Positions 1 to 64,000 of a DNA stretch of 64,000 bases are shown here, one piece after another. A model generated the notes under the pieces. That model did no database searches, was not told the DNA's origin, and worked only from the letters and a program-made list of their open reading frames with translations. The stretch's first letter is position 1. Every line of letters starts with the position of its first letter. The position numbers were made by a program, and so were the translations under genes. This stretch comes from Moniliella sp. 'wahieum' (Eukaryota): the NCBI GenBank assembly GCA_003971905.1, contig RSEE01000009.1:248001-312000 (forward strand). Direction: 5' to 3'.

Positions 1-1515
1 ACCTCAAGCTTGAGGCTTGAAGTTTGATCATCTTTTCATCTATTTTCTCCCCTCTGTTTTCTTTCCATTTTTCGTCTACGAGAAGTACCACTCTGTGAGA
101 GGGTAGTGCTGTGGTTTCCCTGCACAGTTCTCAAGTTGGTTGTTGATGTTCGCCTAACTGTCGGCTCAAAGGGTTCTGGTCGCAGGCTGATGTACACCCT
201 CTATTACTCTTACTCGCTCCATCTCCTGCCTCTCTCTTCTGTCTCCTTTCCGTCAGACAGGGTTGCGGCACCCTCTTTTGCCTTAACGCCTTGTTTTGAA
301 GGCTACTTCGCAGCTGACCTTGTACGATCCTCTCCGTCGAGTGATCTCAAAACATTGCACTCCACCACTCTCCTACTGTTGTTTCCCACGTCTTTTCATT
401 GATCCAATTTAAAAGCATATCAGGAGTACGCATACCGGCCGTAGGCCCGGGTGGTCCTCTAGTACTCTCATATCTCCACACGCGAGCTCCACGTCCACCT
501 ACTAGTATGATAGGTTTGTGGTTTGTGTGGTGTTAATTCAATGTGGCGAGAGAAAGAAGCTGGTGCCACGGGATCTGTGCGCATTTGAGATGTGGCTGGT
601 GGCATGTGCCGACCCTCAGCAACCACATGGAGCAGGGACTTCGTTGGACGTTGACGATAAAACCAGCTTGGGACGCAATTAAGTTGACATTCGTTGGGCG
701 AGTTGTGGATGCTTTGGGGGTCAGCTATATCGACAGTTAGATGTTACAACCCGCTTCATGCTAGCGTCAGGCCTCGGGCTCAGGCTGTGGCCTCGGGCTG
801 AGGTCGGCTGCGCACTCGGATGCAGCTGACGCTTCAAAAGCTTCAAGCTTCAAGAGCTTCAAGGCTCTTGAAGCTTCAAGTGTCAGATGTGACATGTGAC
901 ATGCCCCATGTGACATGCCATTTGTCACTAGGTCGCAGGCGAGCTCAGCCTCATCGGCCTCGCGCCTGAGCCTCAGGCGGTATAGGGTACCCTGTTGGAT
1001 CGGCCGGATGCAGCACACTGCCCCCAGGCGAGGTGCTTCTTGCGGGCGCCTGCCTGCGTGCTTTACGCCGGGCCTCCCACTTCAAGCTCCAAGCTTCATC
1101 GATCATCTCACAGCCCCCCTGGGGGTGGCTCTGTACACTCCGCGCACACTCAGTACTCACGGCAGCACTGCGCTGAGTTGAGCGCGCTGAGCGCAACATG
1201 CGACACTCGGCCTTAGCGCTTAGCGCCCTTGACTTCGCAGCAGCCTTGCCGGAGCGCAGTCACTAGTCAGCTAGTCAGACGCCAAGAAGGCTTGGCGCTA
1301 CCCCGCGATGCTGATGAGCACACGTGACGCGTGCCGAGGGCTTTTCCACAGCACTGAGCGCGGGACACATTATGGCCGCTGCAGAGACCAACCGGGGTCC
1401 GTCATCGATCCGTCATCCGTCATCGAACCATAAACACTTTAACCCCTTCTTCGCCAGACCTTGCCCGCCCAGTCACTGTCGCCTCGTTTCCCCCCCGCCA
1501 ACTAGGGCAGAGAAG

Positions 1516-3037
1516 ATGCGTCTGTCGATTCCACTGGTCGCAGTCAGCCTCGCTGCAGCGGCAACCCGTGCCCAACCCGTCCAGCATGTCTCGCTTGCCC
1601 GGCAGAGCGGGGCTGACCCTCTGGACCCAGCTAGCTACTTGGCCACCAAGTTCAAAAACGGCGATGCCCCCCCCGGCGCCCGCCCAGGCGACGCCGCAGG
1701 CAAACCGTCATTCTTCAAGGCCAGGACGCAGCGCAAAACTCCCAAACAGACTGGTGCAGTAACACCATCTTTATTGGTTCGCCTCAGGTGGGCGGGAGCC
1801 AGACCACGGGCTGGACCGAGCTTCCCCAACTGCTCGGCTTTGACCTCAAGCGTGATCTCTACGTAGGCGACGCCAACCAGGGCGGCATCCTTCCCTACTA
1901 TGTCGAGACGGGGAAAGATCCAACCAAGATCAAACGCGTCGTTATCATCCAGCCCGGCAAGCCCCGTGATAGTTGGAAGTACGCCAGCCTGGCCCGCAAC
2001 GATCTCCTCTGCGCCGCCAACAATGCCACCCTGGGCGTGGACTTGTCCACCATCCTTGTTGCTGCGCCTGCTTGGCAGTCCACGTTGAGCAGTCCGCCGG
2101 TGCCGTTCAAGATGGGGACCTGTACTTTGGATCGGGAAGCTGGGCGAGGGCCAAATCTCACGGGGCCCGGGGAATGCATCGGTGTCCTCTTCCGTGCATT
2201 TGATGAGATGCTCGACCTGTTTTTCAACCGCACAACTTACCCCAATGTGAACAACATTGTCCTGGCTGGCCACTCACTGGGTTGCTCCTTTACCCAACGG
2301 TACGCCATGTTGCGCAAGCCCGGACCTAATGACGCCAACCTACGTTACTGGTATGGGAACTGTGGCTCTTACACCTGGCCCACCACCGACCGCCCCGTCT
2401 CGCCAGGCCAGGGGCAGTGCCCGGCTACCGGTTCGACACCTGGCCGTACGGCTTGGACGGTGTACCTGCCTATGCCAAGAACGGATTTGACCGCAACGCC
2501 ACGATTCAGCGCTACTTTTCGAGGACGATGCACCACGCTCTCGGTTCCCAAGACAATGGCGCTGGTGACACGAAGCCGCCTGCGCAATGCGAGGGATCGG
2601 ACCATCTCTCTCGTGGGACGAATTTGGAAAACGCATACAAGCCCTTTAACCCCGCCAACTTTACCCTCGACATTCTTCCTTACTCCCACCAGATTACCCC
2701 ATGCTCTCCGACCCGCAGAGCCAGTACCGTATCTTTGTCGAGGGCATTGATGACCATATGGACGCGCCGGCAGGCAGCGGGAGTGGAAGTTCGGCAGCCT
2801 CCTCAAGTGCCGTCTCGTCGTCTCCCTCGAGCTCGGCAGCCTCCTCGACTACCGCTTCCTCGTCTCCCTCGGGCTCGGCAGTCTCCTCGAGTACCGCCTC
2901 GTTCTCCCCGGCCTCGACGGCACGCTCCGGCTCAGGGTCCGCGCCTACATCCTCTCTTCCCGTCGGGCGCGATGCGCACATCCGTCACAGGACGGTTGTC
3001 TTTTCTGGCTCTGGGCACCGTCGCCTTCTTGCTTTGA
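1516..3037 (+). CDS. Secreted alpha/beta-hydrolase-fold protein with Ser-rich stalk and hydrophobic C-terminus (probable GPI anchor); frameshifted in assembly
   Basis: ATG 1516 begins the signal-peptide-like MRLSIPLVAVSLAAAATRA. Nucleophile elbow VLAGHSLG in ORF 1788-2750, WPYGLD and QCEGSDHLSRG in ORF 2417-3037, Ser/Ala-rich tract at about 2770-2950, terminal LSFLALGTVAFLL*. Confidence 0.75.
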
Positions 3038-3838
3038 AAACATACCTGCATTTCCCCTGCTGCCGCGGGGACAATTGGCTGCTTGTTTTGCACGTGCCAG
3101 AATCAGTCACTCAATTTGTGTTTGTTTGTTACGGAGTTGCTTGTTGTTTCAACCTCATCTCGACACTTGGGTGCTAGTCGCACCGCGGATGATTATTGTC
3201 CTGCATACGTCGTGAACGCCTACATGTGCACAGATGGATTGTACACACAACGGGGACTCAAAATGGTGGGGGCGAATCATCTGTGGTACGGAGCTTGAAC
3301 TCACAGGTATAGTACACAGCTAAGTTTCCCCAGGTGGTTTCGCCGGGCATGAAGCCAAGACGGTTGGTGGAATTTGTGGGAGAGAGCAAAGCGTGCGCCA
3401 AGCTCATCTCCCTCCGCTGCAACTCCGGTGAGCAATTACATTCGGCAGACACGGACGTAGCCTCCCCCTTTGGGCTGGTCCCTTAGAGGAACTTTTAGAA
3501 CCAAAACCTCTTAGTACCCAGCAGTTGAACGTTGAAACGCGGGCGCAAAAGAGGCAATCCACCTCCTCTCTTCCATGTTTTCTCCACGTCGAGCAGCACC
3601 AAGCCACTGCCTTGTCCTCGATGCCTTCGTCTTTTTAGTTGTACCACCCCTGTTATATTCGCCTCCTCCTCTTGTCTTCTCTCCCGACCTTATACTCTGT
3701 GTTCGTGATTTGTTCCTCTGAAGAAAAGGGACGAGTTTGCGGTTGGGCGAACACGCGCATGCAAAATAGGAGGAAACGATATTGTATGAAAGCAATGAAG
3801 AACATGCTCCAATGCGCTGGGACAGCACTGCGAGCAAT

Positions 3839-11162: not shown

Positions 11163-11814
11163 CGCTGGTGACTTCTGCACTCGGTCGTACATGTTCGGAT
11201 CCATAGAGATGCATCAATCATATACTCTCTAACCCACCCCCGCATTCCCATGCCCCATGCACTTTGGTGGGCCCTCTGAGCTATTATAAAGGATCGATAA
11301 AGGACGGGATAGCGGCGACTTCATTCGATAATTTAAGGTAACTTGACCTGTGAAGAAGGGGGAGAATCGACAGAGTGGAGACCCAACGTTGTCTACTGCC
11401 ATGTACAAGAATCATCCAACAAGAAATCGGTGGTATCTGGCGAGAGGGAGGTAAGTGAAGTGAGCGCGGGCTCAGCCAGAGCCCTCATCCGATGTCTGCA
11501 GGCTCACAAAAGCCGCCTGCGTAGAGCCTGACGTAATTTCCAGCGGCTCCATCATGCATCATCGATGATCACGGATCACCGATCGTCGTGCATCATGCAT
11601 CATGCATCAACGTTCAACACGTTCAACGTGGATCAACTTATCCACTCTCCATCCCAACAGTGGGCTGGCTGTCCTGGATTGAATATTGACAGTGCCGGAA
11701 GCTCCATCGACCAGACCCTCCAGCCCCCCTCCCCCTCCTCTTCTCCGTCCCTGCTCCCTGGGATGACGGAAGGAGTATGCCACGCACACGCCCAACAGCT
11801 CTCCATATCGGGAG

Positions 11815-14214: not shown

Positions 14215-17069
14215 CCATTCTTGCGTAGGGACAGGGGGTGGTAAGACCCAGTGAAGGCAGTGGTAGCCATGATGAACCGGCCGAGAGTATATAGTCGGTG
14301 AGTTTCCACTCTCTCACAGGCTGTTCGTGGTGGAGGCTGGTGGGGAAGTGGGGCAGGAAAGTGTTTGTTTCCGCCATCAGGGTTCGTGGGTGGGGGGTTT
14401 ATATATTTCTACTGCTGCGAACGGGTGCGTTTGCTCGCCACCCCGCCCGAAAGATCCGTCACACTCGGCTGTCAAGACCCATGGAGCTGCGCATCCCTTA
14501 TCCCTGAGTGAAACAAAACCCTCTTTGGAGGGCCAGCGACTGGTCATCGAGATGGCCATATATTATGCATCATGCATGGCATCGTAAGAGACCAAAGCCT
14601 TTGTGACGGTTCCTATTCGCTATTTCCTCGGAGGGCCCTATGTTGACAGAGCCAAAACTCAAGGTGTCTGTGAATCCCCTGGACTCGGACCAGGGCCAAG
14701 CTCCAGTAGAAGCTTTGAAGTCACAAAGTCACCAAGTTACAAGTGAAGTCACTGGTGTACTAGTCATCGTCATCGATTGTCATCGATTGCCATCGATCAT
14801 CGATCAATATGCCCTGAGATTGCTGGATCGGAGAGTTTTTGAGTTGCAAAGATGCATGCTTCCGATGTGTTGAACGTTGATATATGATACCTGATGCATG
14901 ATGCTTGTTGTACCAATAAAAGCCGTTGACCAAGTGTGATAATGCCAGCATGTCTCCTATGCTCGCGCGATCGATGATCGAGACCATAATCGTGTATCAT
15001 GTATCATGCACCATACATCTCTTGGTTCATCGACATCGCTCACACGTCTGTGCCGCGCTCATATTCGTCTGCGCTACATCCGATTTGGAAGCAAAAGTGG
15101 TGGGAGTCAAGTCTCCACTGGTCTCCTACATCAAAAGGGGGCTGGCACCAGCAAGCCGCACACGCCGGAGGATGAGCGATCCCGATATGGGGCGCAGCGT
15201 TTGTTTGTCTCAGCCTTAAGCCGTACTGCAAATGACATGCAAGCATTAATCATTAGACCACACGATGCTGTGTTTGGATCTCTGCGCTGTGCACTTTTGG
15301 CCATCGATCATAGACATCTCGATCATCAGTAATATGCATGCATCATGAGAGAGGCATCGTGCATTATATACTTGCTCATTCTGCAGCTCCCTCGCCATCT
15401 TGGAAGCATTAATCAAGTTGGATATGCAAACATACCACCGAATAGTCGTACATGCATGGTTGCTATAATGGGGATTCAATACTACTGTTGAGCGCTCACT
15501 GAGCTCTCTCAGAGCTGAGAATTAGGACCGTCACAGCTCACCGCCTTGGGCGTGAAGACGAAGACAGCGATCAAGCTGACGATGGAAGAAAATTCGTATA
15601 GGTGATCAAGTGTTTGCGCCAATTAAGCAAGCGCCAAAAGAAAAGAGACCCCGCACACATGGTCATTAATCATTGAACAACCTCCTCACTATTGGTGAGA
15701 ACCAAAACTGGTAGAAGCGGTTAGCCCTAACAAATGCACTCGGCCACTACTATTTCTTTCTCTTGCAGCGCCTTTGCTGAAGCTTGAAGACGCTCACGCC
15801 CTGTCCCGAATAATCAAGCTTCAAGGACCTATTGTGGCCGCAATCACTCATCAGTACGCAGCAATCCATCAGTGCGCCACAGCGTGTATGTATATAGACA
15901 CAGACAAACGTTGATGTCATTCTCAGTGATGGACGAGGGGCTTCTTAGTGTAGGACCGCCGAGCCCCGTAAGTGTCTCTCTTCACGGTTCAGAATATGAG
16001 CACGGGTGAGTGCCGCGGATTGTCTGATCTTCTCCCACACACAAACTTTGGTACTCGGAGCTGCGCTAGGTAATTTTGGTGCTAACGACGACCACATATA
16101 TGCACCATGCCCCACCCCGAGAGAAACACGCTGAACCACCTTCGTTTATATAACAGATCGAGTCTTACCAGGTCTTACTGTTGATTCAACTGTGATGTCT
16201 CAGCCTGAGATCTAATCCTTTTGCCATATATTACTTCTGTTGGAAGAGACAAAAGGGTTCGATCAAGCCGAAGAGTATATAGGTGGTGGCTTCCGAGGAC
16301 AAAATAAGGGGAGGCAAAAGGTGATAAGACGCCTTTTGGCCTACCTACGGAGAGGAGGGGTCGCGGGTCCCACCATGAGCGTGCATGGAATCGTCACCTG
16401 TCACTAGCGCCATTACACATTAATACCATTAGTGCGCATTAGTGGCGCTTATACAGAGACGTCATTGCTCATCATCTGTATTACCCGTCTGAATCTGCTA
16501 GCGACAGTAGCACTGTAAGGCCAGTATCGTGTGGAGGGCGGGTCTACACGTGTATATAGGGAATCGTAACTACATTGGAAGCTTCTCTTGACGACAGTTG
16601 TGGTAGCTAAGTTTTCTGTGCACAATCCATAATAGATCTCAGGTATCGTCCAGTTCTAAGATCTACTGTGAGTTGTGAGAATGCTACATGGTGCGAAAAA
16701 AACAGATACATATATAAAGCCTTTTGCTTGGTATATTATAAGAGAACGCGCGTATAGGAGCCAATGCTGAGTCGCATGCTCGCGCACGCCTCCCATACGC
16801 CGCTTTTTGAGGGTGGGAGTGACATGTCATCATGACATGCCTTCCCTTCTTCGACAAGGCCACGAGCCATGGATGTCTTGTCTGATTGGACGACGGTGCT
16901 GAGCTGTGGTTTACCAGTGTGACATGTGAATATGTGACGGACGGTGTGGTGTGTGCGCCACGTGAGGGCGAATACCTCAAAGAGTGAGATACCTCATGGA
17001 TTCAGGAAATGTACTATAGCCGTTTCTTCTTCTGCAGGATGCACCTGTGCTTTACTGACCCGAAACAAC

Positions 17070-17250
17070 TGTCACAGTCGGGGCTAAGGCGAGGGAGACC
17101 AGGATCGGACTAGGCCAAGGGGTGTAGCAATCGTTCGTGGGGAAGAAGCAAGAACAGAGGACATGGTGCGAAGTGGAAGGAACAGGGAAGGAGCGAGACG
17201 CTCGAGACGAAGAAATTGGAAATGGGAGCGAGATCAGCCAAACTATGACA
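17070..17250 (-). repeat. 3' LTR (181 bp, complete)
   Basis: TGTCAC...ATGACA; 17146-17250 is identical to 22642-22746. Confidence 0.93.
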
Positions 17251-17267
17251 TTGCCCCCTTTCAGACC

Positions 17268-20200
17268 TCATCTCCCGGGCGGCGACGAAGGCGAGAGAGG
17301 GCGAGTCGGCGGGCATGGGAGACAGGCTTATCGGGGTAGAGGGCGTGGAAACGAACCACTGGCTCGGCGTCATGAGACATGTCCGCAGCGGGTACCCACT
17401 CCCTCTCGTGGACAGGATAGCCCCGGAAGTGAACAAAAAGTACTCAATGCGGCCTCCACGACCCTTGCGGCGAGAGTCGAGGACATGCTCGACCTCGTGA
17501 TGAACCGCACCATCATCAGCAAACTCGGGGAGAGGAGGCGGGGGCTCGATCAAGCGGGCAGGGACCACGTCACCAGGGGTGTAGGCTCGCAAGCGGGACA
17601 CATGGAACACGTCATGGAGGTGTAGGTAGTCGGGGAGGCGGACCTGGTACGCGGCGCGGCCCACGGCGCGGACAATGGGAAAGGGGCCGAGGTAGCGATA
17701 GTCCAGGCCGTCAGAAGGCCGCTGGCTGGACACATACCCGTCCCGACGGACCAAAACAGGCTGGCCGGCAGTGAAGGAAGCCGCCTCGGTGCGCTGCTGA
17801 TCGGCATAATGCTTGTAGCGTTCTTGGGCCGCGGCGAGCGTGCGGCGGGCCACCGCCTGGGCCGAACGCAAATCCTCCAGATATGACGCAGCATCGGGCA
17901 CGGGCGAAGTGGAGGGCTCCAACTCCCCCCGGGGGGAGTAACCATAGGTGAGGACAAAGGGGGACTGGTGGGTGCTCGAGTGGGAGGACGAGTTGTAGGC
18001 GAATTCGGCCGTGGGGAGGAGATCGAACCAGTTGGACTGCTGCTCGTCGAGGTAGCAGCGGAGGTACTGTTCGAGGATCTGGTTGAGTCGCTCAGTCTGG
18101 CCGTCCGTCTGGGGGTGGTACGCGGTGCTGAGGCTCGACTTGATGCCCAAGTCGGCACACAAGGCTTGCCAGAAGTGGCTTGTGAAGGTCGGTCCCCGAT
18201 CACTCACCAGATCCCGGGGAAGGCCATGGTAGCGAAAGACCTGGTGTACAAACTGGCGTGCGAGCTGGGGCGCAGTGTCCGTCGTGTGGGCGGGAATGAA
18301 GTGACCCATTTTGGTAAAACGATCCACCACCACCAGAATCGCGTCGTAACCATTGGATCGGGGAAGCTGGGTAATGTGGTCCATCGTCAAGTGGGTCCAC
18401 GGGCCTTGGGGAGGGGAAAGGGGCTGAAGGAGTCCAGCGGGTTGGTGGCGAGGCGCTTTGGTCCGTTGACAGCGGTCGCACGAGCGCACGTAGGCCCACA
18501 CGTCGGCTGACAGGCGGGGCCACCAATATTGAGCGCGGACACGGGCCAACGTCTTGTCGCGCCCTTCATGGCCCGCCAATGCCGAGTCGTGGGCTTGGTG
18601 GAGAATGGCAGCGCGGATCGGCGGGTCGCTGGGGACGTATACCGGTTTCCGTGCCACAAAAGGCCGTCGCGGACCGTCAAAGCATGGCGGGGTGGGCGTG
18701 GAGCCGTAGCAAGGGACCAACGAGGGTCACGAGGCAGGAGTTGGCGGATGCGCTGTCGAATCTCGTCGGCAGACACTCGCCCCACCACCGGTGTATCGGG
18801 GTCCGCCGCCATGAGCTCGAGGGCGGCGGCAGAACGTTCGGACATGGGCTCCACCAGTACTTGAGGTGCCGCGTCAGCGGGCCGGGGCCCCTCAGCGAGG
18901 TCGGGACGGCGCGACAACCCGTCAGCCGCACCATTCTTCTGCCCGGCACGGTACACCATAGCAAGGCGGTAGGGGGACAGGGTCTGGCGCCATCGGCCCT
19001 GGCGGCGGTTCAACAGGCGGGGACGGCGGAACGTAGCAATGGCCTCGTGGTCCGTAAGCACTTGGACAGTCTCAACACTTTCGACGTAATGGCGCCACAC
19101 CTCCACGGCGGCCACGATGGCCAGCACCTCCTTTTCGGACGTAGTATAGTTCAGCTCGGCCGCGGTGAACTTGCGAGAATGGAAGGCGACCGGCCGCCAA
19201 CGACCGTGAACATCCTGCTGGGCGAGCACCGCACCAAGCGCCGCGTCCGACGCGTCAGTCTCGAGGCGAAGGGGGCGAGTGGGATCAAAGTGGCAGAGGA
19301 GGTGGGGCGAGGCAAAGACGCGCTTGAGCTCGGCAAACGCCTCTTCGCAGGCTGGGGTCCAAGAAAACGCTGGTCCTTGCGTGTCAGGTCGGACAGAGGG
19401 GCTGAGATACGGGCAAAAGAACGGACGAAGTGACGGTAGTAGTTGGCGAAGCCGAGGAAGACTTGGACTTGGCGAGGGGTTCTGGGTGTTGGCCACGACC
19501 GAATCGACTCAACCTTGGACGGGTCCATCCCGATCCCGTCAGGCGAAACGACGTAGCCCAGGTACTCGGTGCGGCGTGTGTGGAACTGACACTTGTCGGG
19601 GTTGAGGTAGAACTTGGCCAGCTGCAGACGCCGGAGGACCTCGGCAACGTGGCGCTCGTGCTCCATCTCATTAGTCGAAAAGATGAGGATGTCGTCGAGG
19701 TATGCCAATACCGAGACGTCGAGGAGGTCACGGAGGAGGTCGTTCATCACAGCTTGGAAGGTGGCAGGGGCGTTGCAAAGGCCAAACGGCATAACAAGGG
19801 ATTCAAAGTGTCCGTACCGAGTGCGGAAGGCAGTCTTACTCTCGTCGCCTTCTCTCACCCGCAACAAGTTATACGCCCCACGGAGGTCAAGCTTGGTGAA
19901 GATGCGGGCCCCCGAGAGGCGGTCCAACGAGTCACTAATCAGAGGCAGAGCCAACCGGTTCTTGATCGTAACCGAGTTGAGCGCACGATAGTCCACGCAC
20001 AGGCGCAACGAGCCGTCCTTCTTTTTGACAAACAGGACGCCCGCGCCGAAGGGAGACTTGGATGGACGGATGAACCCTGCAGCCAGGTTCTCCTTGAGCC
20101 ACTGGGACAAGGCCTGCATTTCGCCCGTCGACAAGGGGTAGAGGCGAGTGAAGGTGGGGGCGGCGCCGGGGACAAGGTCGATGGCGTGATCGGCGGCACG

Positions 20201-21300
20201 ATGGGCGGGGAGCGTCTTAGCCCCTGACTTGGAAAAGGCGCTAAGGAAGGAGTGGTAGCGGGGAGGGACTGTCTGGCGGACGTGCTCGAGGTACTCGGGT
20301 GTGTCACACTCGTCGGGAAACATTGGCTCGGGACCGCCAGCGACCGCGACGGACGAGACGGCCAACTCGGGCTCAGGGGGAAATGCGACGTTTACCATGG
20401 CCTCGGGTTCCTTGACCACCTCGAGCTCAAACTGCTCCAGAGAGAGAATGTCAATAGGCGGTCCAGACCGAGAAGGCAAGGAGGGACCCGGGCCAGAGGG
20501 CGCCGAGGAGGGGGTGTGGGGAAGAGGCTGCGTACCGCGCGACGGGGGGTGGGACGAGTGGGTAAGAGAGGGGGGAGGGGACGGGCTGGGAGGGAACCGA
20601 GGAGGGAAAAGGAATCGAGTTGACAGAGGGGGGCGAGATGGGGTATGGGGAGGTGGACTTGGGCCGGGGCCCGGGCGAGTGCTGGTGCTGGTGCGTAGTC
20701 TTGGTCTTGGGCTGGTCTTGGTGCTGGGGCTGGTCTTGGTGCTTGGTCTGGTCTTGGTGCTTGGGCTGGTCTTGGTGCTTGGGCTGGTCTTGGGGCTTGG
20801 GTGGGGGTTGGGGCTGAGGCCGGGGTACAGTCGTGGAAGGCATATGGTGATCACGGCACTGCACCTTATCAAAGTAAAGGGTGTGCGAGGGGTAGTCGGT
20901 GCTGGGGTTGTGAGTCTCAAGGAAAGGGAGGCCGAGGATGAGGGGGTGATGGAGGGAAGTGAGGAAGAACTCCTCAGTTGAGACATGGGAGCCGATCACG
21001 ACAGGCGCCTTCACCGCTTGGGTCACCAGACCCGAGGAAATGGGACGCCCGTCTACCACCCTGACGACCACAGGCGACGGCAGCGTGCGAGGAACCAGGC
21101 CATGCTGGCGGGCAAAACCATGGTCCATGAAAATACTGTTCGCACCAGAGTCGACCAAGGCGGTGACCGGGATCGGGGAAAAGGGAGACGGAGACGAGGG
21201 GCCAGGATGCAGATGGGCGAGTACCGTGAAAGACCGAGAGGAGGGGGGACAGGGCCCCACTGCCGCCTCAGACAGAATCAGCGGCGGGGCCGAGGAGGCG
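17268..21300 (-). CDS. pol: Pol polyprotein: aspartic protease, reverse transcriptase, RNase H, integrase, chromodomain (split by frameshifts)
   Basis: ALVDSGA (PR); [34 protein letters not shown] (RT); LETDASD, VLTDHE (RH); HQAH..GHEG..CDRC, MDHI, SDRG, DGQTER, LGPF (IN); [21 protein letters not shown] (chromodomain). Confidence 0.95.
20697..20802. repeat. 18-bp coding tandem repeat (about 5 copies) in the PR-RT linker
   Basis: Unit approximately CTTGGGCTGGTCTTGGTG; reads (PKHQDQ)n or (TKTSPS)n on the minus strand depending on frame. Confidence 0.85.
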
Positions 21301-22628
21301 GCGGGGAGACCTGGACGTGGGGCACTCGGCAATGAGGTGGTCACGGGAACCGCAGTAGAAGCACGCACCTTGAGCGCGGCGCTCGGTGCGCCGTGCCGCC
21401 GCTTCGGCGGTGGCGGTGGCTGCGCTGAGGTCCATGGGCTCGGCTTCGGGCGACGAGGGCCGAAACCAATGATTGCCGCCCGATCCCGGGGAGGTTGCGG
21501 TACCATGAGCGCCCAACGATTGCGATTGGTCGATGTCAATGGCCGCTGTGCGCAGTTGTTCGAAACTGATCCGTCCAAAGTGAGCCGACTCGCCGCGGGA
21601 GGCGATTGCGTCACGCACCCGCGGCTTCAAGCCGTACAGAAAGTGATAGTAGCGGTCCTCATCCGACGCGTTGGGGTTCCAGCGACGCAGCAGAACCGTG
21701 AACGTAGCGGAATAGTCCGCTGCAGATCCCGTCTGCCGAAGACGACCAAACTCCTCAAACGCCTTCAGCGCCGGGTTGCGCTCGCCCCACTGCTCCAGGA
21801 AAGCTGCGCGAAACGCAGGCCAAGACCGGAGGGCGGGTGTGGTGCGCGCCTCCAGGGGAAGGGCCACCTCCGAACCGAACTGCTCGACCCAAGTGAGGGC
21901 CTCCCCCTGCAGCAGGCCCATGAAGCGGTCGATCCATGCCGCCGCGCCCAGATGCGTGAGGGCGACGCGCGCGTAAATCTCGAAGGAGTGACGACGTGCT
22001 GGGCCTGGACCCGGTCCCGAGAGTTGGGATTCGCACCAGACGACGGGCGGAAACGAACGGGCTCGAACATCTTCGGCTCTTCCGACACCTTGTTCGGGAT
22101 GGCGGTCAGATCACCATAAGGCCCAGGGGGGGAGCGGGGGCGGGGCCCGAGGACACCACGCCAGTTTGAGCCTCCCGTACCGAGGCGGCCAACCGGGCCT
22201 CTTCCGCGGCGAGCGCCGCCTCCTCCCGCCGCTGACGGAGGCGGTGCTCACGGCGCTTCGCCTCTTGCTCATCCTCGAAAGCGCGGCGCTGGTCCTCCTG
22301 GGCTGCAAGGTAGGCCTGGTGTTCCCGGGCCTCCGTCAACAGAAGCTGGCGCATTCTGCGGGCCTCATCGACCCGGCGCTGAGCGGCCTCGAGGTCCAGG
22401 CCGGACAGGTCGGAGGCAGGCAATGTATACCCCGGGGGCGCGGGCGCAACAGACGGAGCTGCATGGGGGGGTTCAGAGGGGCCAGCCGGGTGGAACCACT
22501 CCGGGCCATCGTCGTCGAACGGAGCGTCAGAGGGGGGTCGGACGGGGGTCGGATCGGCCGCGCCGCGCGATGGTGTGCGGCGCGCTAGGGTTACTGGGGT
22601 CATGGGGGTTGTCGTGGATCGAGGACAT
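21268..22628 (-). CDS. gag: Gag polyprotein with CCHC zinc knuckle (frameshifted)
   Basis: LLQGEALTW..SWPAFRAAFL..LRQTGSAADY..FLYGLK (gag core), EPMDL, CFYCGSRDHLIAEC knuckle; N-terminal coiled coil in ORF 22106-22603. Confidence 0.9.
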
Positions 22629-22633
22629 CTCTG

Positions 22634-22746
22634 GTCGGGCTAAGCAAGAACAGAGGACATGGTGCGAAGTGGAAGGAACAGGGAAGGAGCGAGACGCTCG
22701 AGACGAAGAAATTGGAAATGGGAGCGAGATCAGCCAAACTATGACA
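22634..22746 (-). repeat. 5' LTR, internally deleted or truncated
   Basis: 105 bp identical to the 3' LTR, joined to GTCGGGCTAAG; about 60 bp and the inner TGTCACA terminus are missing. Confidence 0.85.
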
Positions 22747-24994
22747 ACAACAGCCTCTGGATAGTATACACCCCACACTGCCAGTATGGCCACGCGCGCA
22801 TAACCTTCGGCCTCACTGTCCGGACTCGCCCATCAATATATGCATTAATGTCACTCGCATATGTGTCAGTCAGTGCGTCAATACTTAATTCTAGAGAGCT
22901 TGCCAGCTTGGCAAAGTGAACTCAGTGCTAAGTACGCTAAGTACGCTAAGTACTCAGGTACTCAGTACTCATGCATCCATGGTACTCATGACACTCTCCA
23001 TAGTATCTATTTTCGCTAATAGTTACTGTAGTCACCACAGTGTTGCACCCCCAGAGGTAAGCATGTGACGCCGCGCACATTAATTCCGTGAAACGGTTGG
23101 CCGTTTGCAGTCACACACGGTGAATGATCTACTGGTTGTTTGCTTGGTGAAGCTAGTGACGCCGGTGACCTGAGGCGACGTGTTCGGTGTTGCCGGGTGT
23201 CTCGCTAACGTCTAACATGCGCTAAAGACAGGACCACAAGGATACTACGTACCGGGCCCGTAGTAGTTGTGCCGCGCTCCCGGCCCGCGAGCCCCCTTTG
23301 GCCTTGAAGCTTGACACTTAAAGCTGAAATCCATTGCAATGTGTGATCATCCAAAGTCTTGAAGCTTGAGATCGAGCTCGAGAACGATCAGATCTGAGAT
23401 GAGAGAGAGATAATCGATAATCGATAATAGGAGATGGAGTCGATGGCGAAGAGGACACTTTTGGCCGGGCGCAACTTGGCTTCTGGATGGACATGCATGC
23501 AAGAAACGTTTCCTTGTCCTTGTATAAGAGTTGAGGCCTGAGGGCGGCGCTGAGGGGATACCGGAGATGCAAGAAAGCAGAAGCAGGCCAAAGAGAAAAA
23601 ATGACTATAGGACGGCTCTTCGATAACCGCGGACGTTCTTGGAGGATCGATGGATGACGAATGAATGACGCGTGAAATGCGACATGGGCAATGCATGAGG
23701 TCTGAGCCTCAGATCTCACTGAGATCTGAGGGGGCCCAAGCGATGGGTGAGTCTCTGAGTTCAACGAACGTTCACTATAGCATCGCGAGTCCAGCTGCCA
23801 GGCTGTCCAGACGACGGACACGGGACGCTTGTCCCAGTGGTTGCATGTGATGTAGTGAAGCTACAAAAAAAACTGATCAGATGCTACGGTGACATGCAGG
23901 TGTGACAAGAAGTGGCAGGCGACTCAGTGACCTAGTGACCGGTGACGGGTGACCGGCCTTTGACCTCCGTTTCTGTGAATCAATTAATTGACGCCTCATA
24001 AAACGTACAGTCCTGCCACGCGCCACGCGACCTGGGTAACCCTATCGACCACCGGACACCGGCGACACGCCACTGCCCGCAGCCAGACATTTTAAACGTT
24101 CAACGTTCAGACGTTCAGGGCCGACAGCCATCCTCGCACGGCCTCCTGCGTCGCTGCGGTGCACGTCGGCCAGTCCAGACACCATCATCGATCCATCGGC
24201 GTCGTCTGCATTCACATCACCTCCCCTCTCGCCTCCACTCCCCCCGTCCTCCCGTCCTCCGCCCCCCGCCTCGCACCAGTTCCCGCCGGTTCCAGCCTTG
24301 TGACAGCTCCCCGATCTACCCTTGCCCCACCGAGTGCTACTGCCTCGTCCCGTCGCTCAGCGCTCAACAGCGTTCAACGAACGTCCAGTGCGCCGCTCTG
24401 CGTCCACCGTTCACCTCAGCTCACAAGGCACCGAATCCAATCGGTGTGCGCGCCTCCCCCCACCCCCATCACCAGGTCACCGGGTGTTCCCTCTTTGCCG
24501 TCCATCTGCCGGTCGCCTCTGTCGCACGAGTATCTTCGGTGCGTATGATCTACTGCGTTGACATGGTGACAGTCTTGCCTGGCTTTGGCTTTGGCTGTTT
24601 TTCTGTGCCTGAACCTCGACACGTAGTACTTTATCGAAGATCCCCACGGTTGCTGATTGAATCTGCCGCAGCTTAGCATCGCTTTAGGAGGCTCTAGGGC
24701 GTTCAAACTTTGGCTCCACAATTCAAGGTCCTTGACTAGCTTGCTCCCTCCCCAGTGCAACCCGTACCATTCTGAGCACTGAGGTTCAACTCGGTCAACG
24801 TGCAACCCCAAGCTCCCCCGTTCTACCTACACCTCCTTCAGATCTCAGAGGCGCTGTCTCAATTTGTTTTGCTTCCTACGGCCTCAGCTACGCTTTGTCA
24901 CGTTCGATCTTCCCTTGCAACAACTTCGTTTGACGCAAGATCACCTCCCTTTTTCACGCTGTCTTATTCTTCTTTGAAACGACCCTGTCCCTCC

Positions 24995-41900: not shown

Positions 41901-42671
41901 ACGGCCTCTATACTCGACCACAGGTTGCCTTATTCAAGCTTCAGCTTCCAAAGCTTTTCTCGGATACTGCCCACATCCCCTGCCTGTCAGATCTCAGACC
42001 CAGACACATGCATGAACACGTGCTGCTGAATGATGCAATGGTGATCGAGGTGATCGAAGACATGTGACTTGCTGACAGATCGAAGATCGATGATACGTTG
42101 ACACGTTGACACGTTGACAGGCTTCAGGCGAGGTGGTGCAGGAGGGCGCAGGCTGGTGGCTGCAGGTGCCAAATGCACACGAACGGGGGGGCAGCGACGT
42201 CACATGGCACATGTCACAGCCCGTCACGCACCAGGGCCCACGCATCACGCATTGCATGTCACCTGCAAGGGTCGTAGATAGCTCGATAGCGGCGCCTGCC
42301 GCATGCCAGCTGTCCATGTCAGCGCTCACCGTGAGCGCTCACTGGCACCATGCAACCATGCCACTGGAGGCCACAGGGCGTGGAGCCAGTGGAGCTACGG
42401 CGGTTCGCGTAGTAGGCACCGTCGTAGGCAACGCGGTACACAGCGTCTGCTGGGAGCTAGGCGCCAGGAACAGAAGGCCATACCACAAAACCCAGTGCAG
42501 ACTACTAAAGCGCCTATCGGCGTCTTTACGTACACATCCCGTTTTACAGCTTTAAGCTTCAGCTTCGGGATTCAAGCTTCAAGCTAGCTTCAAGCTCAAG
42601 CTCCAAGGCCCAGGCGCTCAGGTGCCTACATACCCATAGCCCTGTACGTATCGGACAGTGGAGCCGAGTTG

Positions 42672-42706
42672 AACGTTGAACGTTGAACGTTGAACGTTGA
42701 ACGTTG
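42672..42706. repeat. (AACGTTG)5 perfect heptamer array
   Basis: Five exact copies, continuing in phase into ATGCATG. Confidence 0.95.
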
Positions 42707-44352
42707 ATGCATGATGGAGCCAATCGGACAGTGTCGCTTCCTGTCCATGCCATCCTGTGGGGTTCGGGCTTCGCGAGTGGGCACCACAAGGCACTATGTA
42801 TCACTTGCATCGTTCATCACACATTGTCCCCTGACACATGTCACCCGTATCACACATCCCCCAGGATTTTGCTCTCGACATCGTAGGGAGTCGGTGACCG
42901 GTGACGTCAAAGTGAAGTATCCCCCCCGAGATAAAAATACCAGGTGTGCAGGTGTGGGGACAAGATCAATCCGGGGTTCGTCTGGAGTGTTCTTTCAACA
43001 ACAGGGAATGGACCAGAGGGGCTCAAGAACCGATAAAGCCGAGTGCCTGAGCCTGACTGAGGTCCTGGGGGGCCTGAGGGGCCTGAGAGCTGGGGAGTTA
43101 AGAAGTTAAATGTTCATCCACACCAGGGATTTGGTGTTGTGGCCTATAACATGATAACACGTAACAGACCCCTGTGGGGAAGACAGAAGACCGATTTTGA
43201 CCGTACGTGCGCGTGTGCTGCATGCTTCCGAACGCCGAGAACACAATCTTTAATCGTTAATCAACGTTCAACAACGTTCAACATTGTATGCAACGTTCAA
43301 CGTTCAGTACGTTCAGTACGTTACTCAGTACTCAGTAGATATCCTCGGTACTCAGTCTAGTCAAGCACTCAGGTACTCAGTACTCGCTCTGGTTCAGACT
43401 CATGTACCTCACAGTATTCGCATTGCGTTCGACGTCCAACATTCAACCACGTACTCACTACTCACAGTTGTCACGTGGTTGTTGCCTTGTTCGAAGAGAT
43501 CTGCGATCGCAACAAAACGAGCGCAGAGCCACAACGACTGAGACCACCACAGGATGCGGGAGCATCGAATATCGACCAGAGATCGATCCGAGAGTTGTCC
43601 CATATCACATGTTCATAATGCGGGTGCTCTTCAACATATGTCACTGAACAAATGGAGTGCCTCACCGTCTTGCTCGCCCCTTGCTGCGTGAGTAACTGAG
43701 TACTGCGTGTTGTCGGGAATGCGCGACCCCAACAAAGCTTGCTTGCCACATGGAGTGCTGGAAGGCGTTGGTGACGAAAGCTCTATTGCTGCCACAACTA
43801 AGTACTAAGTACTGACTACCCATTCAATATCCATCAAACTCGGCCTCTATTAATCACCCTTCAACCCTCGGCCTCCACTAACCGATTTGTCCAAGCTTCA
43901 AGACGCCGCCAGTAAGGTATCCGAGGCTTGGCTGGAAGGACGGGGGCCTGGGCGTGCGACCTGATGCCTGACGTCCTGAAGGCTGAGGGCCTGACGAGCT
44001 CTGTTTCGGTCGAAGCAGCGCGAGCCGGTGCTCTTTTTTCCTGTATACGTACGTCCTCCACAGCAATGACTCGGGCGGTGAGCTTTAGGAGGACACGCAT
44101 TCCACAATACTCCCCCTCCCAATTCAATCGATGACCCTGTTCGCTCGCTCGCATATGACCGCTCGCAGCAGTCCACCACCGCAGAAGGCTGCACCACTGG
44201 TGTGATGCGCTTGGCTTCTACAGACCGCAGCGCGGCCTTGTTCTGTGCCTGGACTCTCATGTGTGCATATATTCACAGCTTGCCGGGCCGCATTCGCTTT
44301 TTTTATGTTCCTTCCCGCCAACCCACCCCCAACGTCGACACCGCAGCTCAAC

Positions 44353-50466: not shown

Positions 50467-52026
50467 CTGTCCTTGGGCCCAGCGGTCATGTATGAATGGA
50501 TCACGCTGTGGAGATGTGACTCGGAGAGCACAGAGGGGCAAGTGGCGCTTGGCGAACTTGCGGCGGGGAAGTTCATAAGAAGGCGTGAAGGGTGAAGGGT
50601 GAAAGGTGAAGCATGGAGTCGTTTCGCAGGTCCCCCGATTTGGGTCAACCGGACGCGACCGAACATAGTGTAGTCGGGTCCGGCCAAGCTGTGTTGCTAG
50701 TATCGCTTCGTGCTGGTGATGTATTACGGGCCCTTGGATTCCGTCTTTGGGAGGCCGGCAAGGTGTCGTGCTAGTATCTTAGACCAACATGACCGGTTTG
50801 GGAAATGGGCACAGCGGCCTCTGCGGATCCTGCTGGACGTTCTGATAAAGTGTTAGTTTCGTGTGCTGATTCGCGGCGCCCAAAGAATATACCGGAATGG
50901 GGACTGAGTACGATCAAAATTGATATGTCGATGGTAGGACTAACCCTGTCTCTTCCAGGTGTGGCAGAAGGCTTAGGCCCAACCAATTAAGCAACCGCCA
51001 GTGCGATTGCACTGCTCTGCATCTCTTCCAGAGGTTCTCCACCCTTGCTTGGGTTCCTCTGGTCTTACAGTCGGGCTGGATGAACTGGATGGCATGGACA
51101 GCGCCGCCAACAGAAGGGTGAAAAAACAGAAAAAGCAGACGGACGAAGAGGAGTGGAACATGCCACCCGAGGTGATGGCCTGGGCGGAAAGGAACTGTAT
51201 GCCCATGATGCATGACCTAGGAATCGATCCGCACAGAAAAGCATGTGGATATCCACAGGCAATACCAGCTTGTATAACTGTTTTTGGCTCGTAGGTTGCA
51301 GGTGGCAGCTTGCGAGTTGAATGGCTCGCCACTAGACGCTGGAGTGTCGACCCCACAGAGTCACTGAGGTCGGTGTGCTTCAAGGCTGGCGGCGTGGCAG
51401 CGGCAAGAAGTGTCCGTTGCCCAGGTCAAACGGAAGCTGGATCCACATTCCAATCGAGCCAGCGCTGGGTGCTGGAAGGAAACTGGCTGGCACTCGTCAG
51501 TTGGACGACGCGGACCACCGGTGACGGTGACCGGTGGTTGATGCATGATGCATGATGATGCATGGATCCATGGACGTGGCTATTGGGCCGGTCACCAGCT
51601 ACTCGCATCTTCGGCGAGGCAATGCCGGCTGGTGGCGGCCCTGCTGGGCGCTGCGGCCTCCACTTGTCCCTCGCCCCGACCCGACCAGTGCACTCGAGCT
51701 GCTCTCGCCTGCTCCGGCACAGGGGCAGAGGCCATGCATAGTGCTCGACGCATGATCCATGATCCATGATGCATGGTGGTCATTCAGTGGCTGGCGTGGC
51801 GGGGCACTAACCGGTGACCGGTGACCCCGCTTGCAAATTGCTCGGGCCTGCGCGGAGTTAGCCGGTCGACTGGCCCGAGCCAGGGTGCTGGCGGGCCGCA
51901 CGGGGGCAGCAGCCTGCAGCAGCTGGGCATGACAATGTACGTAATGCGTCTGAGATTCTGCAGCGGGGCTGCCTGCGGATAGAATTGGTGCTGGTGCGTG
52001 TTTCGGAGCGTGCGCGCGTGCGAGGC

Positions 52027-52069: not shown

Positions 52070-52694
52070 GGGCGGAGCGCACGGGTGGCGCATGGCTGCC
52101 CCTGTGCGGGGCTGGGAGCGCATCACGGGCGCCTGACTGCGGCGGCTGCGAACAGCAGCGCCGCGCCAAGGGGCGCGTAGGCGCATGGGTGCGTGCTGGT
52201 GCGCCGCAGTCTGCCCTACGCGCGGGGCTGCGCTGGCTGTGAGGATCGAGAGCATCTGAGGCGTCTCCTGCCAGGCTCCAGAGAGACGGCGTGGCCAGTG
52301 GCTGCGGCAGGCGCAGGCAGGCGGTCGAGTCATGGGTCGAGTCATGCGTGGGCTGCCCGCGGCCGGCTGTGGCAGTGGGATGGATGTGACATGTGACATG
52401 TGACATGCGGTGGCGGCGTGGAGCTTGGACAGGCATTAAGCGCTAAGCATGGCTGCATGCATGCATGCAGCATGCCGCATGCACGAACCCAGCATGTGAG
52501 ATTGATGATTTGAACATCAGAGCTCCCCCGCAGCAGCCCAGCCAGTGCGCTGCGCCGCACTAGCCCAGTGCCCCCCCCCCTCCACAAGCTATTAATTACA
52601 CAGCGCTCAGCCTCAGCCGCCGCTTCTCTGCTGCGCTTGCTGCCACCACCCCACCCCCACCACCACCGCCTCCTCGCGTGCCACCCCCCCGGCC

Positions 52695-61628: not shown

Positions 61629-61680
61629 CGCTCAGGACGAAGCAATTGGAAATGGGAGCGAGATCAGCCAAACGATGAGA
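61629..61680 (-). repeat. About 50-bp scrap of the Gypsy LTR end
   Basis: gacgaagcaattggaaatgggagcgagatcagccaaacgatgaga vs LTR gacgaagaaattggaaatgggagcgagatcagccaaactatgaca (3 mismatches in 45). Confidence 0.8.
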
Positions 61681-63145
61681 TTTGACAGCTGCTACGCCAC
61701 GGTGCTCCGCCTCTCGGAGGCTATCTATTGACAACATCTTGTGTGTGTAATACCAGGGCTGAGGACGGAGGCGTCCCCTCAATACTTGATCCCTTGGCAG
61801 GCATTCCCGCAACCGAGTGCCAGCACGGCTACCCCCACGTTACCCATTCCGATGTCCACAGTTACTCTTTAAGCTTTACCATCAAGAGTATAGTCCAAAA
61901 AAATGCAATGTGGCGGCGACGCGTAGAGTGTGATGAGACCTGGAGTCCAGATGGTCCTCGAGGGTGATGCAATCGCACTGATGGCGGTGGTGTTGGTCTA
62001 AGCCAACCAGCTACGCCTACTGAGGAACATCAAGCAGCGAGTCGCCACCAGGGGCTATACAGCTGAGCAAGGAAAACAGGGGAGAAAAACAGAACTCCCA
62101 GGCATGAGGAGGAACTGAAGGGACATTGGCCAAAGCACGAGCCACCCGGTGGCTCAACAGAGCGCATTCCGGCGCTCTGTGGCGGTGGCTGGCTCCCCCA
62201 GGCGCGGAGGTGGAGCACTTCCGGCCTCACTAGCCCCGAGGCTCCGCAGGCGCCAAAGACTGGTGGCGCACGCATAGCCACGTAAGCGCGCGTAAGCCCC
62301 AGAGACTAATAGTCTTCTCTCCTGTAGCTCTCAGACCTCATCCTGTTTCCCATCACCAACGCCAATCTCGCGCCCGCAAGAGATCGCCTACGCTACTGTC
62401 CTATTATACACTTCAGCATCCATTGCGGTCTCCATAGGCGGGTGGATCAGGGCGTCGCTCCAGCTCCACACGCGTCACTCCAACAAGCAAGCGCCGCAGC
62501 CCGATCCACACCTTCCACGCCTATATGGCAGGCCAGCGGTGCCGGCCAAGCCTTCTCGCCTTGCGATAGATCAAGCTTCAAGCTTCAGTCGATCACCAGG
62601 GGAACGGTTGAAAAGGACTGGATATCTCAACTGGTGTTGGTGTGGTACCGTTTCAGGCCACCCCCCCCGTCCACGTCCATCTTTGGAGAGGCAACAACGA
62701 TGTAGTCCAGATTGCTCCGTTGTTCTCCTGATCTAACCTACGGGGCAGGGGCCGGTGACCTGTTGCTAAGCAATGCCAACCCAGCTGGCACGGTCGATGT
62801 ACCCTCTGGGACTGCGCTCTGGTGAACCCCTGCAAAAGTCCCCCGAAGAATCGGTGGAACAACATGATTCATGCCCAGCACAGTTCGCCACACCAAAAGA
62901 ACCAGGCCCTAGCTCCAGCCGTAGGGAGAGGGATCCAGCAGGACCGTCCATTCCAATGAGGTCATACGAACTCTTCTGCGTTCTGTGCAAGGAGGATGCT
63001 GATGCAAGAAGAGGCAGGTGTGTGCGGGGCATGGGAGGAGAGAGAAAAGATGAGCCGGAGGCAAAGAAGGAGCAGTTGGGAAAAAGGGAGAGCTAGGGAG
63101 TCCAAGACACGTGTTGAGCGAAACTGCCGGCATGCTGCATGGACG

Positions 63146-63815
63146 TTAAAAGTTGATCAGGTCGTTGGTGATCACATACCACGTTCCTGCCGCTGCCGCT
63201 GCCGCGGCAAGGGCGAGAAGGAGGGCAACCAACGGCAGGGACACCTGAGGCATGCGCGAGGTAGATGCCTTGGCTTGTGCGCGCAGCTGGGCATTCTCTG
63301 CTTGCAGCTGCGGGATGGATGGGGACGTCGGGAGCTCCTCCGCTTCTTCCTCGGGCACCACTGCCGAGGTAGGAGGCAAGTAGGCCACGCGCAACTTTTG
63401 CTCGCTAATCTCGGCCTTGTTCACCGACGCCCAAAATTCCGTAGAAGGGAGACTGGTAGCGGTGGGACTGGCAGGCGCGCTCTGTACCAGAAACTTGTCC
63501 CGGCACTTGGCACTGAGCAGCGGTTCCTCCGCCATGGCCTGCAGCATAATCAGTACCTCGGCCGAACCCCCGGCAGGGACAAGCCAGTATTGGGCTTAAC
63601 ACAGTACTGCTTGGGCGCGGTCGTCTTGATTTTGAAAGCGACGGGGTGAGAGTGTGGGTTGGTGATGGTCAACGGTTGAGTGCCCAGGCGGGTCAAGGGG
63701 CGCGGGAAGCCCAGTTGAGAGGGCGGATCGAGTCTGGGAGGTAAGGCGAGTGAGAGGGGCAGGGATGGGAGGGTGCAGGGAGACAAAGGGGAGAAAGGAC
63801 GTACTTGACAGCCAT
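63146..63815 (-). CDS. VAMP-associated protein (VAP/Scs2-like; MSP domain and C-terminal TM anchor)
   Basis: MAVK|LDPPSQLGFPRPLT (intron 63804-63734), VAFKIKTTAPKQYCVKPN (VAP signature), KCRDKFLVQS, EQKLRVAYL, hydrophobic tail LPLVALLLALAAAAAAAGTWYVI. Confidence 0.9.
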
Positions 63816-64000
63816 AACGACGATCGAAGGTGGCTGGTGGCAGAGGTGGAGAAGACGGTGGTGGGGCAAGCTTCAAGCGCCTGGCGTTCAACAAAGCTTG
63901 ACAAATTGGCGTGGCGTCCTGTCGCCTTTTGCTGAGAAGGGGTTGAAACCGCTTGGACCGACCAGCCAGCCCCTCTGGCGCTCAGGCGCTCAGGCCGCCG

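Follow-up and report, generated by a model that had tools for sequence, protein, structure and literature searches.

An excess of tandem repeats with a period of seven nucleotides (nt) has been described in bacteria, together with the idea that it mirrors the DNA segment held by the polymerase (PMC4692102). Repeat surveys usually define microsatellites as motifs of 1-6 nt, so that heptamers go uncounted (PMC6387519). At the level of single mutations, template switches that copy nearby sequence in reverse complement are a precedent for the class of mechanism considered here (PMC5453318, PMC8794818). We analysed a single 64-kb stretch of nuclear DNA, with a GC content of about 57%, from Moniliella sp. 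'wahieum' (contig RSEE01000009.1, positions 248,001 to 312,000; this whole stretch is called the window, and coordinates are counted from its first letter). Its intergenic DNA carries many short repeats in which a 4-bp palindrome sits between two copies of the trinucleotide T-N-A. These repeats look like the scars of a very specific mutation process, so far undescribed, rather than a regulatory code. No description of such a rule was found, in fungi or elsewhere, in the main texts of open-access papers. A first-pass annotation of the window had mentioned heptamer-rich intergenic DNA in smut fungi, and this parallel was not confirmed, the literature on heptanucleotide and Ustilago giving nothing relevant.

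Results

The first-pass annotation had described intergenic arrays of period 7 whose unit is a 6-bp palindrome of the form A-NNNN-T plus one spacer base. An A-NNNN-T palindrome was present in 23 of the 23 intervals that it listed, with at least two full copies at a spacing of exactly 7 in 12/23 and one full copy plus partial copies in 11/23. Controls consisted of order-3 Markov simulations (30, 100 or 200 runs) and of block-wise 1-kb order-2 simulations (200 runs). The window contained 48 exact period-7 repeats with a length of 14 nt or more, compared to 4.7 in 30 order-3 simulations. A 6-bp palindrome lies inside 31 of these 48 repeats, and 29 of the 31 belong to the A-NNNN-T class, with a spacer that is mostly C or G as had been claimed (C 13, G 13, A 2, T 1). 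The restriction to palindromes beginning with A was found again when pairs of the same palindrome separated by one base (P-N1-P) were counted: 24 pairs were of the A..T type, 2 of C..G, 3 of G..C and 0 of T..A, the expectation for such pairs being 0.01 and the maximum 1 in 100 simulations. Nor did other spacings show the effect: pairs of A..T palindromes at spacers of 0, 2 and 3 numbered 0, 0 and 0.

A lag-7 self-correlation, in which no palindrome is assumed, placed TAA, TTA, TGA and TCA as the top four of the 64 trinucleotides, all of them T-N-A. The pattern T-N-A/N4/T-N-A occurs 241 times in the window and its N4 is palindromic in 103 cases; simulations gave 7.16 palindromic cases (maximum 16, 200 order-3 Markov runs) or, with the 1-kb composition kept, 7.17 ± 2.64 (maximum 14, 200 order-2 runs). 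For the 15 other flank pairs X.Y the palindromic share was 3.5-8.5%, which is the chance level, and the controls C-N-G (21/414), G-N-C (27/454) and A-N-T (6/147) showed no excess. T.A is thus the sole flank pair with an effect, which upholds the T-N-A junction as the anchor of the arrays. Between pairs of T-N-A, a palindromic filler of 4 nt (103/241) is the sole enriched length, fillers of 2 nt (24/93), 6 nt (4/130) and 8 nt (1/107) being at chance.

The repertoire had been put at 13 or more of the 16 possible palindromes; this lower bound is correct and too modest, all 16 four-base palindromes being used. The 6-bp palindrome does not itself constitute the rule. It is a by-product of T-N-A plus a 4-bp palindrome, and it is lost in arrays of period 8, 9 and 10, which retain the 4-bp palindrome and T-S-A (S, C or G), as in ACGT+TGAC, GTAC+TCAG and AGCT+TCAAG. 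The two alternating dyad centres 3.5 bp apart, to which meaning had been attached, are a trivial, arithmetic consequence of any tandem of a palindrome plus one base. The rule is best stated as a 4-bp palindrome joined to a T-N-A whose N is mostly C or G.

The commonest form that follows this rule is the 12-mer T-N-A-x-y y'x' T-N-A-x-y rather than an array. It is a 5-nt direct repeat whose spacer is the inverted copy of the repeat's last two bases. Among the exact period-7 runs around the core (n = 76), 28 have a length of 12 nt, 6 of 11 nt, 9 of 13 nt and 4 of 14 nt, and the 12-nt runs have the phase T-N-A-x-y...x-y, or its reverse complement, in 26/28. Because a 7-nt tandem duplication would give at least 14 nt, the 12-nt element is not such a duplication. 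When T-N-A was not required, 5+2+5 elements with an inverted 2-nt spacer still numbered 37 against 4.67 expected; once oriented, they carry T at position 1 in 26/37 and A at position 3 in 29/37, with position 5 unbiased.

Repeats of T-S-A-x-y were counted according to the length of the filler between the two copies. A filler of 2 nt gave 115 repeats against 3.7 expected, followed by 3 nt (31 vs 3.5), 4 nt (29 vs 4.0) and 1 nt (23 vs 4.0), and direct joins of the two copies (D-D joins, filler 0) showed no enrichment (6 vs 3.8). The 2-nt filler is the inverted copy of x-y in 85 of the 115 cases and solely the inverted copy of the T-N side in 5. By our reading, xy and y'x' modules alone make up 12 of the 29 four-nt fillers, for which chance would be 4 of the 256 4-mers; the extra bases are therefore templated, not random. 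The middle bases of the two T-N-A copies were GG in 46 cases, CC in 31, AA in 5, TT in 4 and mixed in 17. Since the two copies nearly always agree in N, the second one repeats the first directly rather than in inverted form, and the unit is a direct repeat around a palindrome.

The choice of xy tracks the T-S-A-x-y background within about 0.2- to 2.7-fold, with all 16 combinations used, and no conserved flank positions beyond the core were found at the loci in the window. Even-length palindromes showed no general enrichment, whatever the arm length; the only ones in excess were odd palindromes of 11-13 bp (80 vs 49 and 47 vs 14), which are the arrays themselves. In several chains, two different palindromes flank one shared T-N-A and each of them matches its outer flank, as expected if one site had been struck once leftward and once rightward.

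Perfect palindromes of even length also occurred in the form T-S-A-x-y-y'-x'-T-S'-A, in which the middle bases are complementary. Eight were observed, with about 1-2 expected, at 4-13, 869-878, 11558-11569, 15489-15498, 16820-16829, 23388-23397, 41462-41473 and 42331-42342.

The 103 hits fall into 85 loci, 72 of them with a single unit; the density of scars is about 90 per 25 kb of non-coding DNA, and arrays have mostly 1.7-2.4 copies and up to 5.7 units. Gene models of the window are approximate and were drawn from open reading frames (ORFs), Pfam matches and codon periodicity, 190 ORFs (42 + 148) being scanned for Pfam domains. The first-pass annotation had seen essentially no array inside coding sequences or the Gypsy element. 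In agreement with it, we found 0 loci in the interior of the Gypsy-type retrotransposon (133 T-N-A sites), which serves as an internal negative control, and 0 in four Pfam-supported ORFs (106 T-N-A sites), that is, 0 loci for 239 sites where about 7.5 would be expected at the window rate (80 loci for 2554 sites). Around the loci, local codon periodicity was reduced (Mann-Whitney p = 5.7e-6). Of the 103 hits, 101 fall within non-coding intervals delimited by hand; the positions of the elements partly guided this delimitation, and the intervals are so not independent.

The longest array is found on the minus strand at 42668..42714 and reads (TCAAC+GT)x5+TCAAC, 40 nt, which equals 5+7x5. It is followed by a TGATG-CA-TGATG element, with the last TGA common to both. 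The single-stranded DNA of 42664-42712 folds at -11.2 kcal/mol (z -5.0 vs shuffles) with T-G-A in a three-base loop. In the same way, an array of three TGATG copies separated by CA occupies exactly 19 nt at 51539..51557, or 5+7x2. By comparison with these lengths, 17 of the 76 period-7 runs are of 15-17 nt and end in other phases, and beyond the clean repetition of an event slippage probably also acts on the arrays. At 14871..14887 a GT-TGA-TA site carries the palindromes ACGT and TATA on either side of a shared TGA.

The other arrays of period 7 are given here by their unit. AAGCTT+C occurs as an exact run at 838..854, within a complex AGCT/T-S-A cluster (831-880), and again at 42571..42585 and 62571..62587, with AAGCTT+G at 41253..41272. 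ACATGT+G is found at 887..903 and, with 3.4 copies, at 52384..52407; AGCGCT+T, which has a T-T-A junction, is located at 1212..1226. Three copies of ATGCAT+C lie at 11589..11609, next to an ACGT/TCA unit that shares the last TCA, and ATGCAT+G at 41101..41115. ATCGAT is followed by C at 14791..14806, by A at 23409..23428 (T-A-A junction) and by G at 26045..26060, immediately past the end of the isochorismatase ORF (26044), at 32203..32218, and at 35451..35464, just downstream of the amino-acid permease ORF. AGTACT+C is present at 22958..22971, with period-8/9 variants adjoining at 22927-22965, and AGTACT+A at 43797..43813. The remaining units are AACGTT+C (24095..24109), AGATCT+C (27668..27685 and 41555..41570), ACTAGT+G in three copies (31487..31508), ACGCGT+G (31944..31960), AGGCCT+C (40829..40842), ATTAAT+C (41521..41535) and ACCGGT+G (42892..42905 and 51810..51826). 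A composite at 43261..43337 joins AACGTT units of period 10, then 7, to ACGTTCAGT of period 9 and to AGTACT+C of period 7.

Repeats of other kinds accompany the arrays. Short tandem duplications of period 8-11 are likewise in excess in the window, and T-S-A is present in 7 of 13 period-8 units and 3 of 4 period-10 units among the exact repeats. Irregular CCTGA/GCCTGAG words with periods of 6, 8, 9 and 15 fill the non-coding stretches 43040-43090 and 43960-43994. A (TGCA)n/(CATG)n tract at 52446-52483 holds a 20-bp perfect palindrome (52452-52471); such a 4-bp palindromic microsatellite is the product that repeated 2-nt inverted copying would give. Tandem repeats of longer period, in ORF-rich and GC-rich stretches, were seen at 2791-2916, 20683-20812, 57759-58033 and 59174-59215 (periods of 42, 18/36, about 36 and 15 nt, respectively), and these are probably coding repeats, separate from the heptamer grammar.

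The interior of the Gypsy-type retrotransposon is on the minus strand at 17110..21626 and comprises, according to Pfam, protease, reverse transcriptase, RNase H and integrase domains. Its reverse transcriptase matches many eukaryotes, among them Tilletia, Tremellales and Sporobolomyces. The element is bounded by identical direct repeats of 105 bp (17146-17250 and 22642-22746), whose 5-bp flanks do not match. A longer solo copy of the long terminal repeat (LTR)-like sequence, 84% identical, is located at 36076-36258 and a 54-bp fragment at 61629-61682; the true LTR start is probably near 17070, and the 5' LTR copy looks truncated. Other Pfam-supported ORFs code for an amino-acid permease, a RabGAP-TBC protein, LRR ORFs and ankyrin ORFs, and Pfam exons for isochorismatase, mitochondrial-carrier, B12D and MSP-domain proteins. 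The closest relative of the permease ORF is 84% identical and its best named matches, from Fistulina, Xylona and Aspergillus, are 45-49% identical; the RabGAP ORF gave no match among longer proteins. Together, the protein matches point to a fungus, probably a basidiomycete. A paralogous pair of about 0.85 kb (30015-30865 vs 37716-38528), 72% identical and without a Pfam match, may represent a gene family without annotation or an old element. Its indels are mostly of 1, 3 and 5 nt, and no 7-nt indel was found in the window either between these paralogues or between the LTR copies.

We also searched for similar arrays elsewhere. A metagenome scan for (AAGCTT+S)x3 gave at least 121 loci. Among the matches listed, the clear examples were few (contigs L079, L047 and L004): contig L079 carries TGAGATC x3, TAACCGG x3 and TGAAGCT, and contig L047 carries TCAAGCT, TTATCGA and TCAACGT. 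Outside the seed, again among the matches listed, the grammar was weakly enriched in two contig groups (18/218 and 8/71, vs 5-6% for other flank pairs) and absent from the remaining contig groups. In prokaryotes, three-unit arrays were found at 122 or more loci for AAGCTT+S, at 120 or more for CAGCTG+S and at 120 or more for TCATGA+S, lower bounds from which no ratios can be derived. Heptamer arrays of other palindrome classes are thus also common in prokaryotes, and the strict A..T-only rule of the window does not appear to be universal. Among the matches listed, many Pseudomonas-group genomes (loci L169, L172, L126 and L144) contain long arrays of AAGCTT+C or AAGCTT+G, perfect and with as many as 11 units, and TCATGA+S arrays are frequent in filamentous cyanobacteria.

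Discussion

The anatomy of the 12-nt element, in which a 5-nt direct repeat is joined to a 2-nt inverted one, backs the proposal of a mutational or repair process made in the first-pass annotation, and it indicates a specific one that works through a short inverted copy. Taking the mutational readings jointly, we consider it very probable that the arrays are neutral mutational scars and not a code. The more precise suggestion of a fold-back or a staggered cut at T-N-A fits in spirit, with the 12-nt mode and the same N in both copies; a simple staggered fill-in fails, filler 0 being unenriched. From the anatomy we infer that the elementary event is a-b-T-N-A -> a-b-T-N-A b'a' a-b-T-N-A, a gain of 7 nt of which 2 are inverted and 5 direct; read on the opposite strand, the product is T-N-A-x-y y'x' T-N-A-x-y. 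Because T pairs with A and b'a' with ab, each event yields a 4-bp palindrome, hence a 6-bp A....T palindrome, and a second T-N-A. The chances seem to us about even that a polymerase fold-back or a PIF/Harbinger-like enzyme reading T-N-A adds exactly 7 nt in this manner, with about 6% of non-coding T-S-A sites rewritten and all 16 heptamer types born de novo.

As the molecular cause we favour, tentatively, a short template switch in the course of DNA synthesis. The growing strand would fray off the template over its terminal five nucleotides (a-b-T-N-A), and the T-N-A end would re-pair in inverted orientation, with itself or with the T-N-A of the opposite strand, via its self-complementary T..A. 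Two bases, b'a', would be copied in the inverted sense, the 7-nt mini-hairpin a-b-T-N-A-b'-a' would remain looped out, and synthesis would restart at a on the original template. Arrays could grow by new events at either T-N-A copy and in either direction, together with slippage of the hairpin-prone heptamer. In coding DNA, 7-nt insertions would be purged by selection, and the Gypsy copy would not yet have accumulated them. The inserted b'a' is the reverse complement of the two bases preceding T-N-A, as in a template switch. A switch of this kind explains the exact product, the same N, the one-sided inverted copy and the occurrence of both orientations, and it accounts for the templating of longer fillers and for the lack of any mobile element.

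Several points weigh against the template switch. The direction of change, an insertion, is taken from the anatomy alone. The exclusivity of T-N-A is left unexplained, since C-N-G, G-N-C and A-N-T should re-pair equally and show no excess, and such strict base specificity looks like the action of a protein. Pairing of T with A across one base is sterically dubious, and the inter-strand version requires a central mismatch. The runs of 15-17 nt (17/76) and the array ends in other phases are not predicted by 5+7n, nor is the extra base of the period-8 units, mostly TCAG/CTGA. The T-S-A-x-y-y'-x'-T-S'-A palindromes form a minority class without an origin in a 5+2 event. We know of no precedent for a template switch with a fixed 5+2 geometry.

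The closest competitor is a T-N-A-specific cutter (a transposon, a domesticated transposase or a nuclease), which we regard as possible and yet rather unlikely. Here, a 5-bp staggered target duplication T-N-A-x-y would be left after excision, the hairpin on the flank would be opened 2 nt off its tip and add the P nucleotides y'x', and repeated hits would build the arrays. A 5-bp direct duplication with a zero-spacer 2-nt palindrome is the textbook footprint of a hairpin-type excision, and strict base specificity with a fixed geometry appears enzymatic. Footprints of Ac/Ds are palindromic copies of the flanking DNA according to PMC4561436, hairpin chemistry is common to MULEs, hAT and Transib elements as presented in PMC5499845, and the basidiomycete elements covered by PMC12730594 include hAT (duplications of 5, 6 and 7 bp) and CMCT (2-5 bp). 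For mPing, a PIF/Harbinger element, the account in PMC4561436 has excision requiring bases 1 and 3 of the duplication, with the middle base nearly irrelevant. The enrichment of fillers with one or two bases beyond the two P nucleotides (31 vs 3.5 and 29 vs 4.0) points in the same direction.

The details of the junction argue otherwise. T-N-A occupies positions 1-3 of the 5-mer, an asymmetric arrangement where transposase dimers usually lead to a symmetric target, and the palindromic bases are one-sided (85 vs 5). The D-D joins and the wide range of junctions that one expects of end joining are missing, the junction being almost invariant. Elements of the mPing type, as described in PMC4561436, make 3-bp duplications and excise precisely, and from this chemistry of 3-bp overhangs and precise repair we could derive no 5+2 product. 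To leave about 90 scars in every 25 kb of non-coding DNA, an enormous number of insertion-excision cycles would be needed. A DNA-transposase domain was found in 0 of the 190 ORFs and no element that has terminal inverted repeats (TIRs) together with such a duplication was found in the 64 kb, apart from one chance-level candidate. Exact 9-nt TIRs with a target site duplication (TSD) of 3 nt or more were searched for across the window, and none with T-N-A came up.

The candidate came from a relaxed TIR search that allowed 5-bp T-N-A-N-N, 3-bp T-N-A or 7-bp duplications, with about 0.8 expected by chance as an estimate. It is the 1075-bp stretch 13564-14648, the sole transposon-like candidate with a T-N-A-N-N duplication, and it exhibits TGACA direct repeats and inverted ends matching at 10/12 (ACATNGGGCCC). 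It was rejected as a transposon, being at the chance level with an end similarity that stops short of the interior.

Other cutting and joining schemes were dropped. Retention of a transposon-end dinucleotide (TSD T-N-A + xy + y'x' + T-N-A) leaves the recurrence of xy after the second T-N-A unexplained and needs 16 element families. A hAT-type footprint with a nick offset by 1 nt, for duplications of 5 or 7 bp, predicts a filler other than the one observed. If a staggered cut of 3 or 5 nt were filled in, the period would be 3 or 5, and filler 0 is unenriched. Head-to-head fusion predicts complementary middle bases, while 8 complementary cases (CG/GC) were seen vs 77 with the same C or G.

Ordinary replication slippage on chance palindromes, in which hairpin-forming heptamers expand and persist preferentially, seems improbable to us. 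The arrays do fold as single-stranded DNA better than shuffles, with T-S-A in the loop (42664-42712 being the case given above), duplications of neighbouring periods are also in excess, and the over-representation of heptamers in many bacteria has been attributed to the polymerase footprint (PMC4692102). Slippage, however, needs two starting copies and cannot produce the 12-nt 5+2+5 element, the commonest form. Hairpins of the C..G, G..C and T..A types are as good or better, yet they gave 2, 3 and 0 pairs vs 24, and even-length palindromes per se are unenriched at every arm length. With 29 of 48 units of the form A-NNNN-T plus one base and the modal element outside its reach, slippage is inadequate, as the first-pass annotation had argued.

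The same annotation had also considered a promoter or chromatin code. Selected cis-elements, whether palindromic binding sites set in arrays or a structural signal of promoters or chromatin, are very unlikely in our opinion. It is true that the elements are intergenic only and often near gene ends (e.g. the array at 26045, just past an ORF), and that binding sites of dimers are typically palindromic. Against this, all 16 palindromes are used at roughly the background frequency of T-S-A-x-y sites, most loci are single 10-12-mers (single units at 72/85 loci), a 7-bp spacing would make adjacent dimer sites overlap, the flanks are not conserved, and the 5+2+5 anatomy has no binding-site logic. A sequencing or assembly artefact is hardly credible, as no known type of error inserts 7 nt that include a site-specific inverted copy, the elements keep out of coding DNA and of the retrotransposon, and the independent metagenome contigs L079 and L047 carry like arrays with several palindromes.

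If the reading of the arrays as scars is true, they would provide a clean mutational signature readable from sequence, in which the site (T-N-A) and the product (5+2 nt) are both defined and growth can be seen to lead from one event to a microsatellite. Palindromic repeats and small hairpins could then arise in one step and at a high rate, and the responsible enzyme would become identifiable by genetics. The scars would also offer a molecular clock for the non-coding DNA of the lineage, in which the retrotransposon copy is scar-free. Repeat surveys that end at 6-nt motifs overlook such classes and, if the cause is polymerase-based, the finding could bear on the long-unexplained heptamer excess of bacteria.

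Compared to known systems, the arrays resemble microsatellites, or simple sequence repeats, in being short non-coding tandem repeats that slippage can change, with copies likewise head-to-tail; here, the units are bound by a symmetry and by a site rule. The intergenic heptamers of bacteria, such as the cyanobacterial STRR and the Xanthomonas GGGAATC, share the period of 7, the intergenic location and the many loci per genome (PMC4692102). They consist of one or a few non-palindromic, often G-rich units in long arrays, often as inverted pairs, and lack a grammar of T-N-A plus palindrome, whereas the window, from a eukaryote, has 16 unit types, mostly 1.7-2.4 copies and single units at 72/85 loci.

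PIF/Harbinger elements (Tourist, mPing) follow the same T-N-A rule in the description of PMC4561436, T and A being required and the middle base free. According to the same source, mPing makes a 3-bp duplication, inserts in T-W-A and leaves no scar upon its precise excision, in contrast with the 5-nt repeat and 2-nt filler of the window, where N is C or G in 77 of the 86 cases with the same N.

Hairpin footprints and the coding joints of V(D)J recombination (hAT, Transib/RAG, MULE) are alike in combining a direct duplication of target length with P nucleotides that derive from the flank, two such nucleotides being typical of the V(D)J joints. The window differs from them in that no element was found, the 5-mer motif is asymmetric, the P bases are one-sided, the junction is near-invariant and arrays reach 5.7 units.

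Short-range template switches, as set out in the quasi-palindrome and four-point models (PMC5453318, PMC8794818), are similar in that a reverse-complement copy is followed by a return and a hairpin arises in one step. None with such a fixed geometry or site rule was found in the open-access literature. In the window, switching is invariably at T-N-A, the inverted copy has a constant length of 2 nt, the return is to a point 5 nt upstream and so creates a direct duplication, and the frequency is high enough to shape the intergenic sequence. The finding belongs with templated small insertions or footprints, among which its rule of site and geometry is unusually strict.

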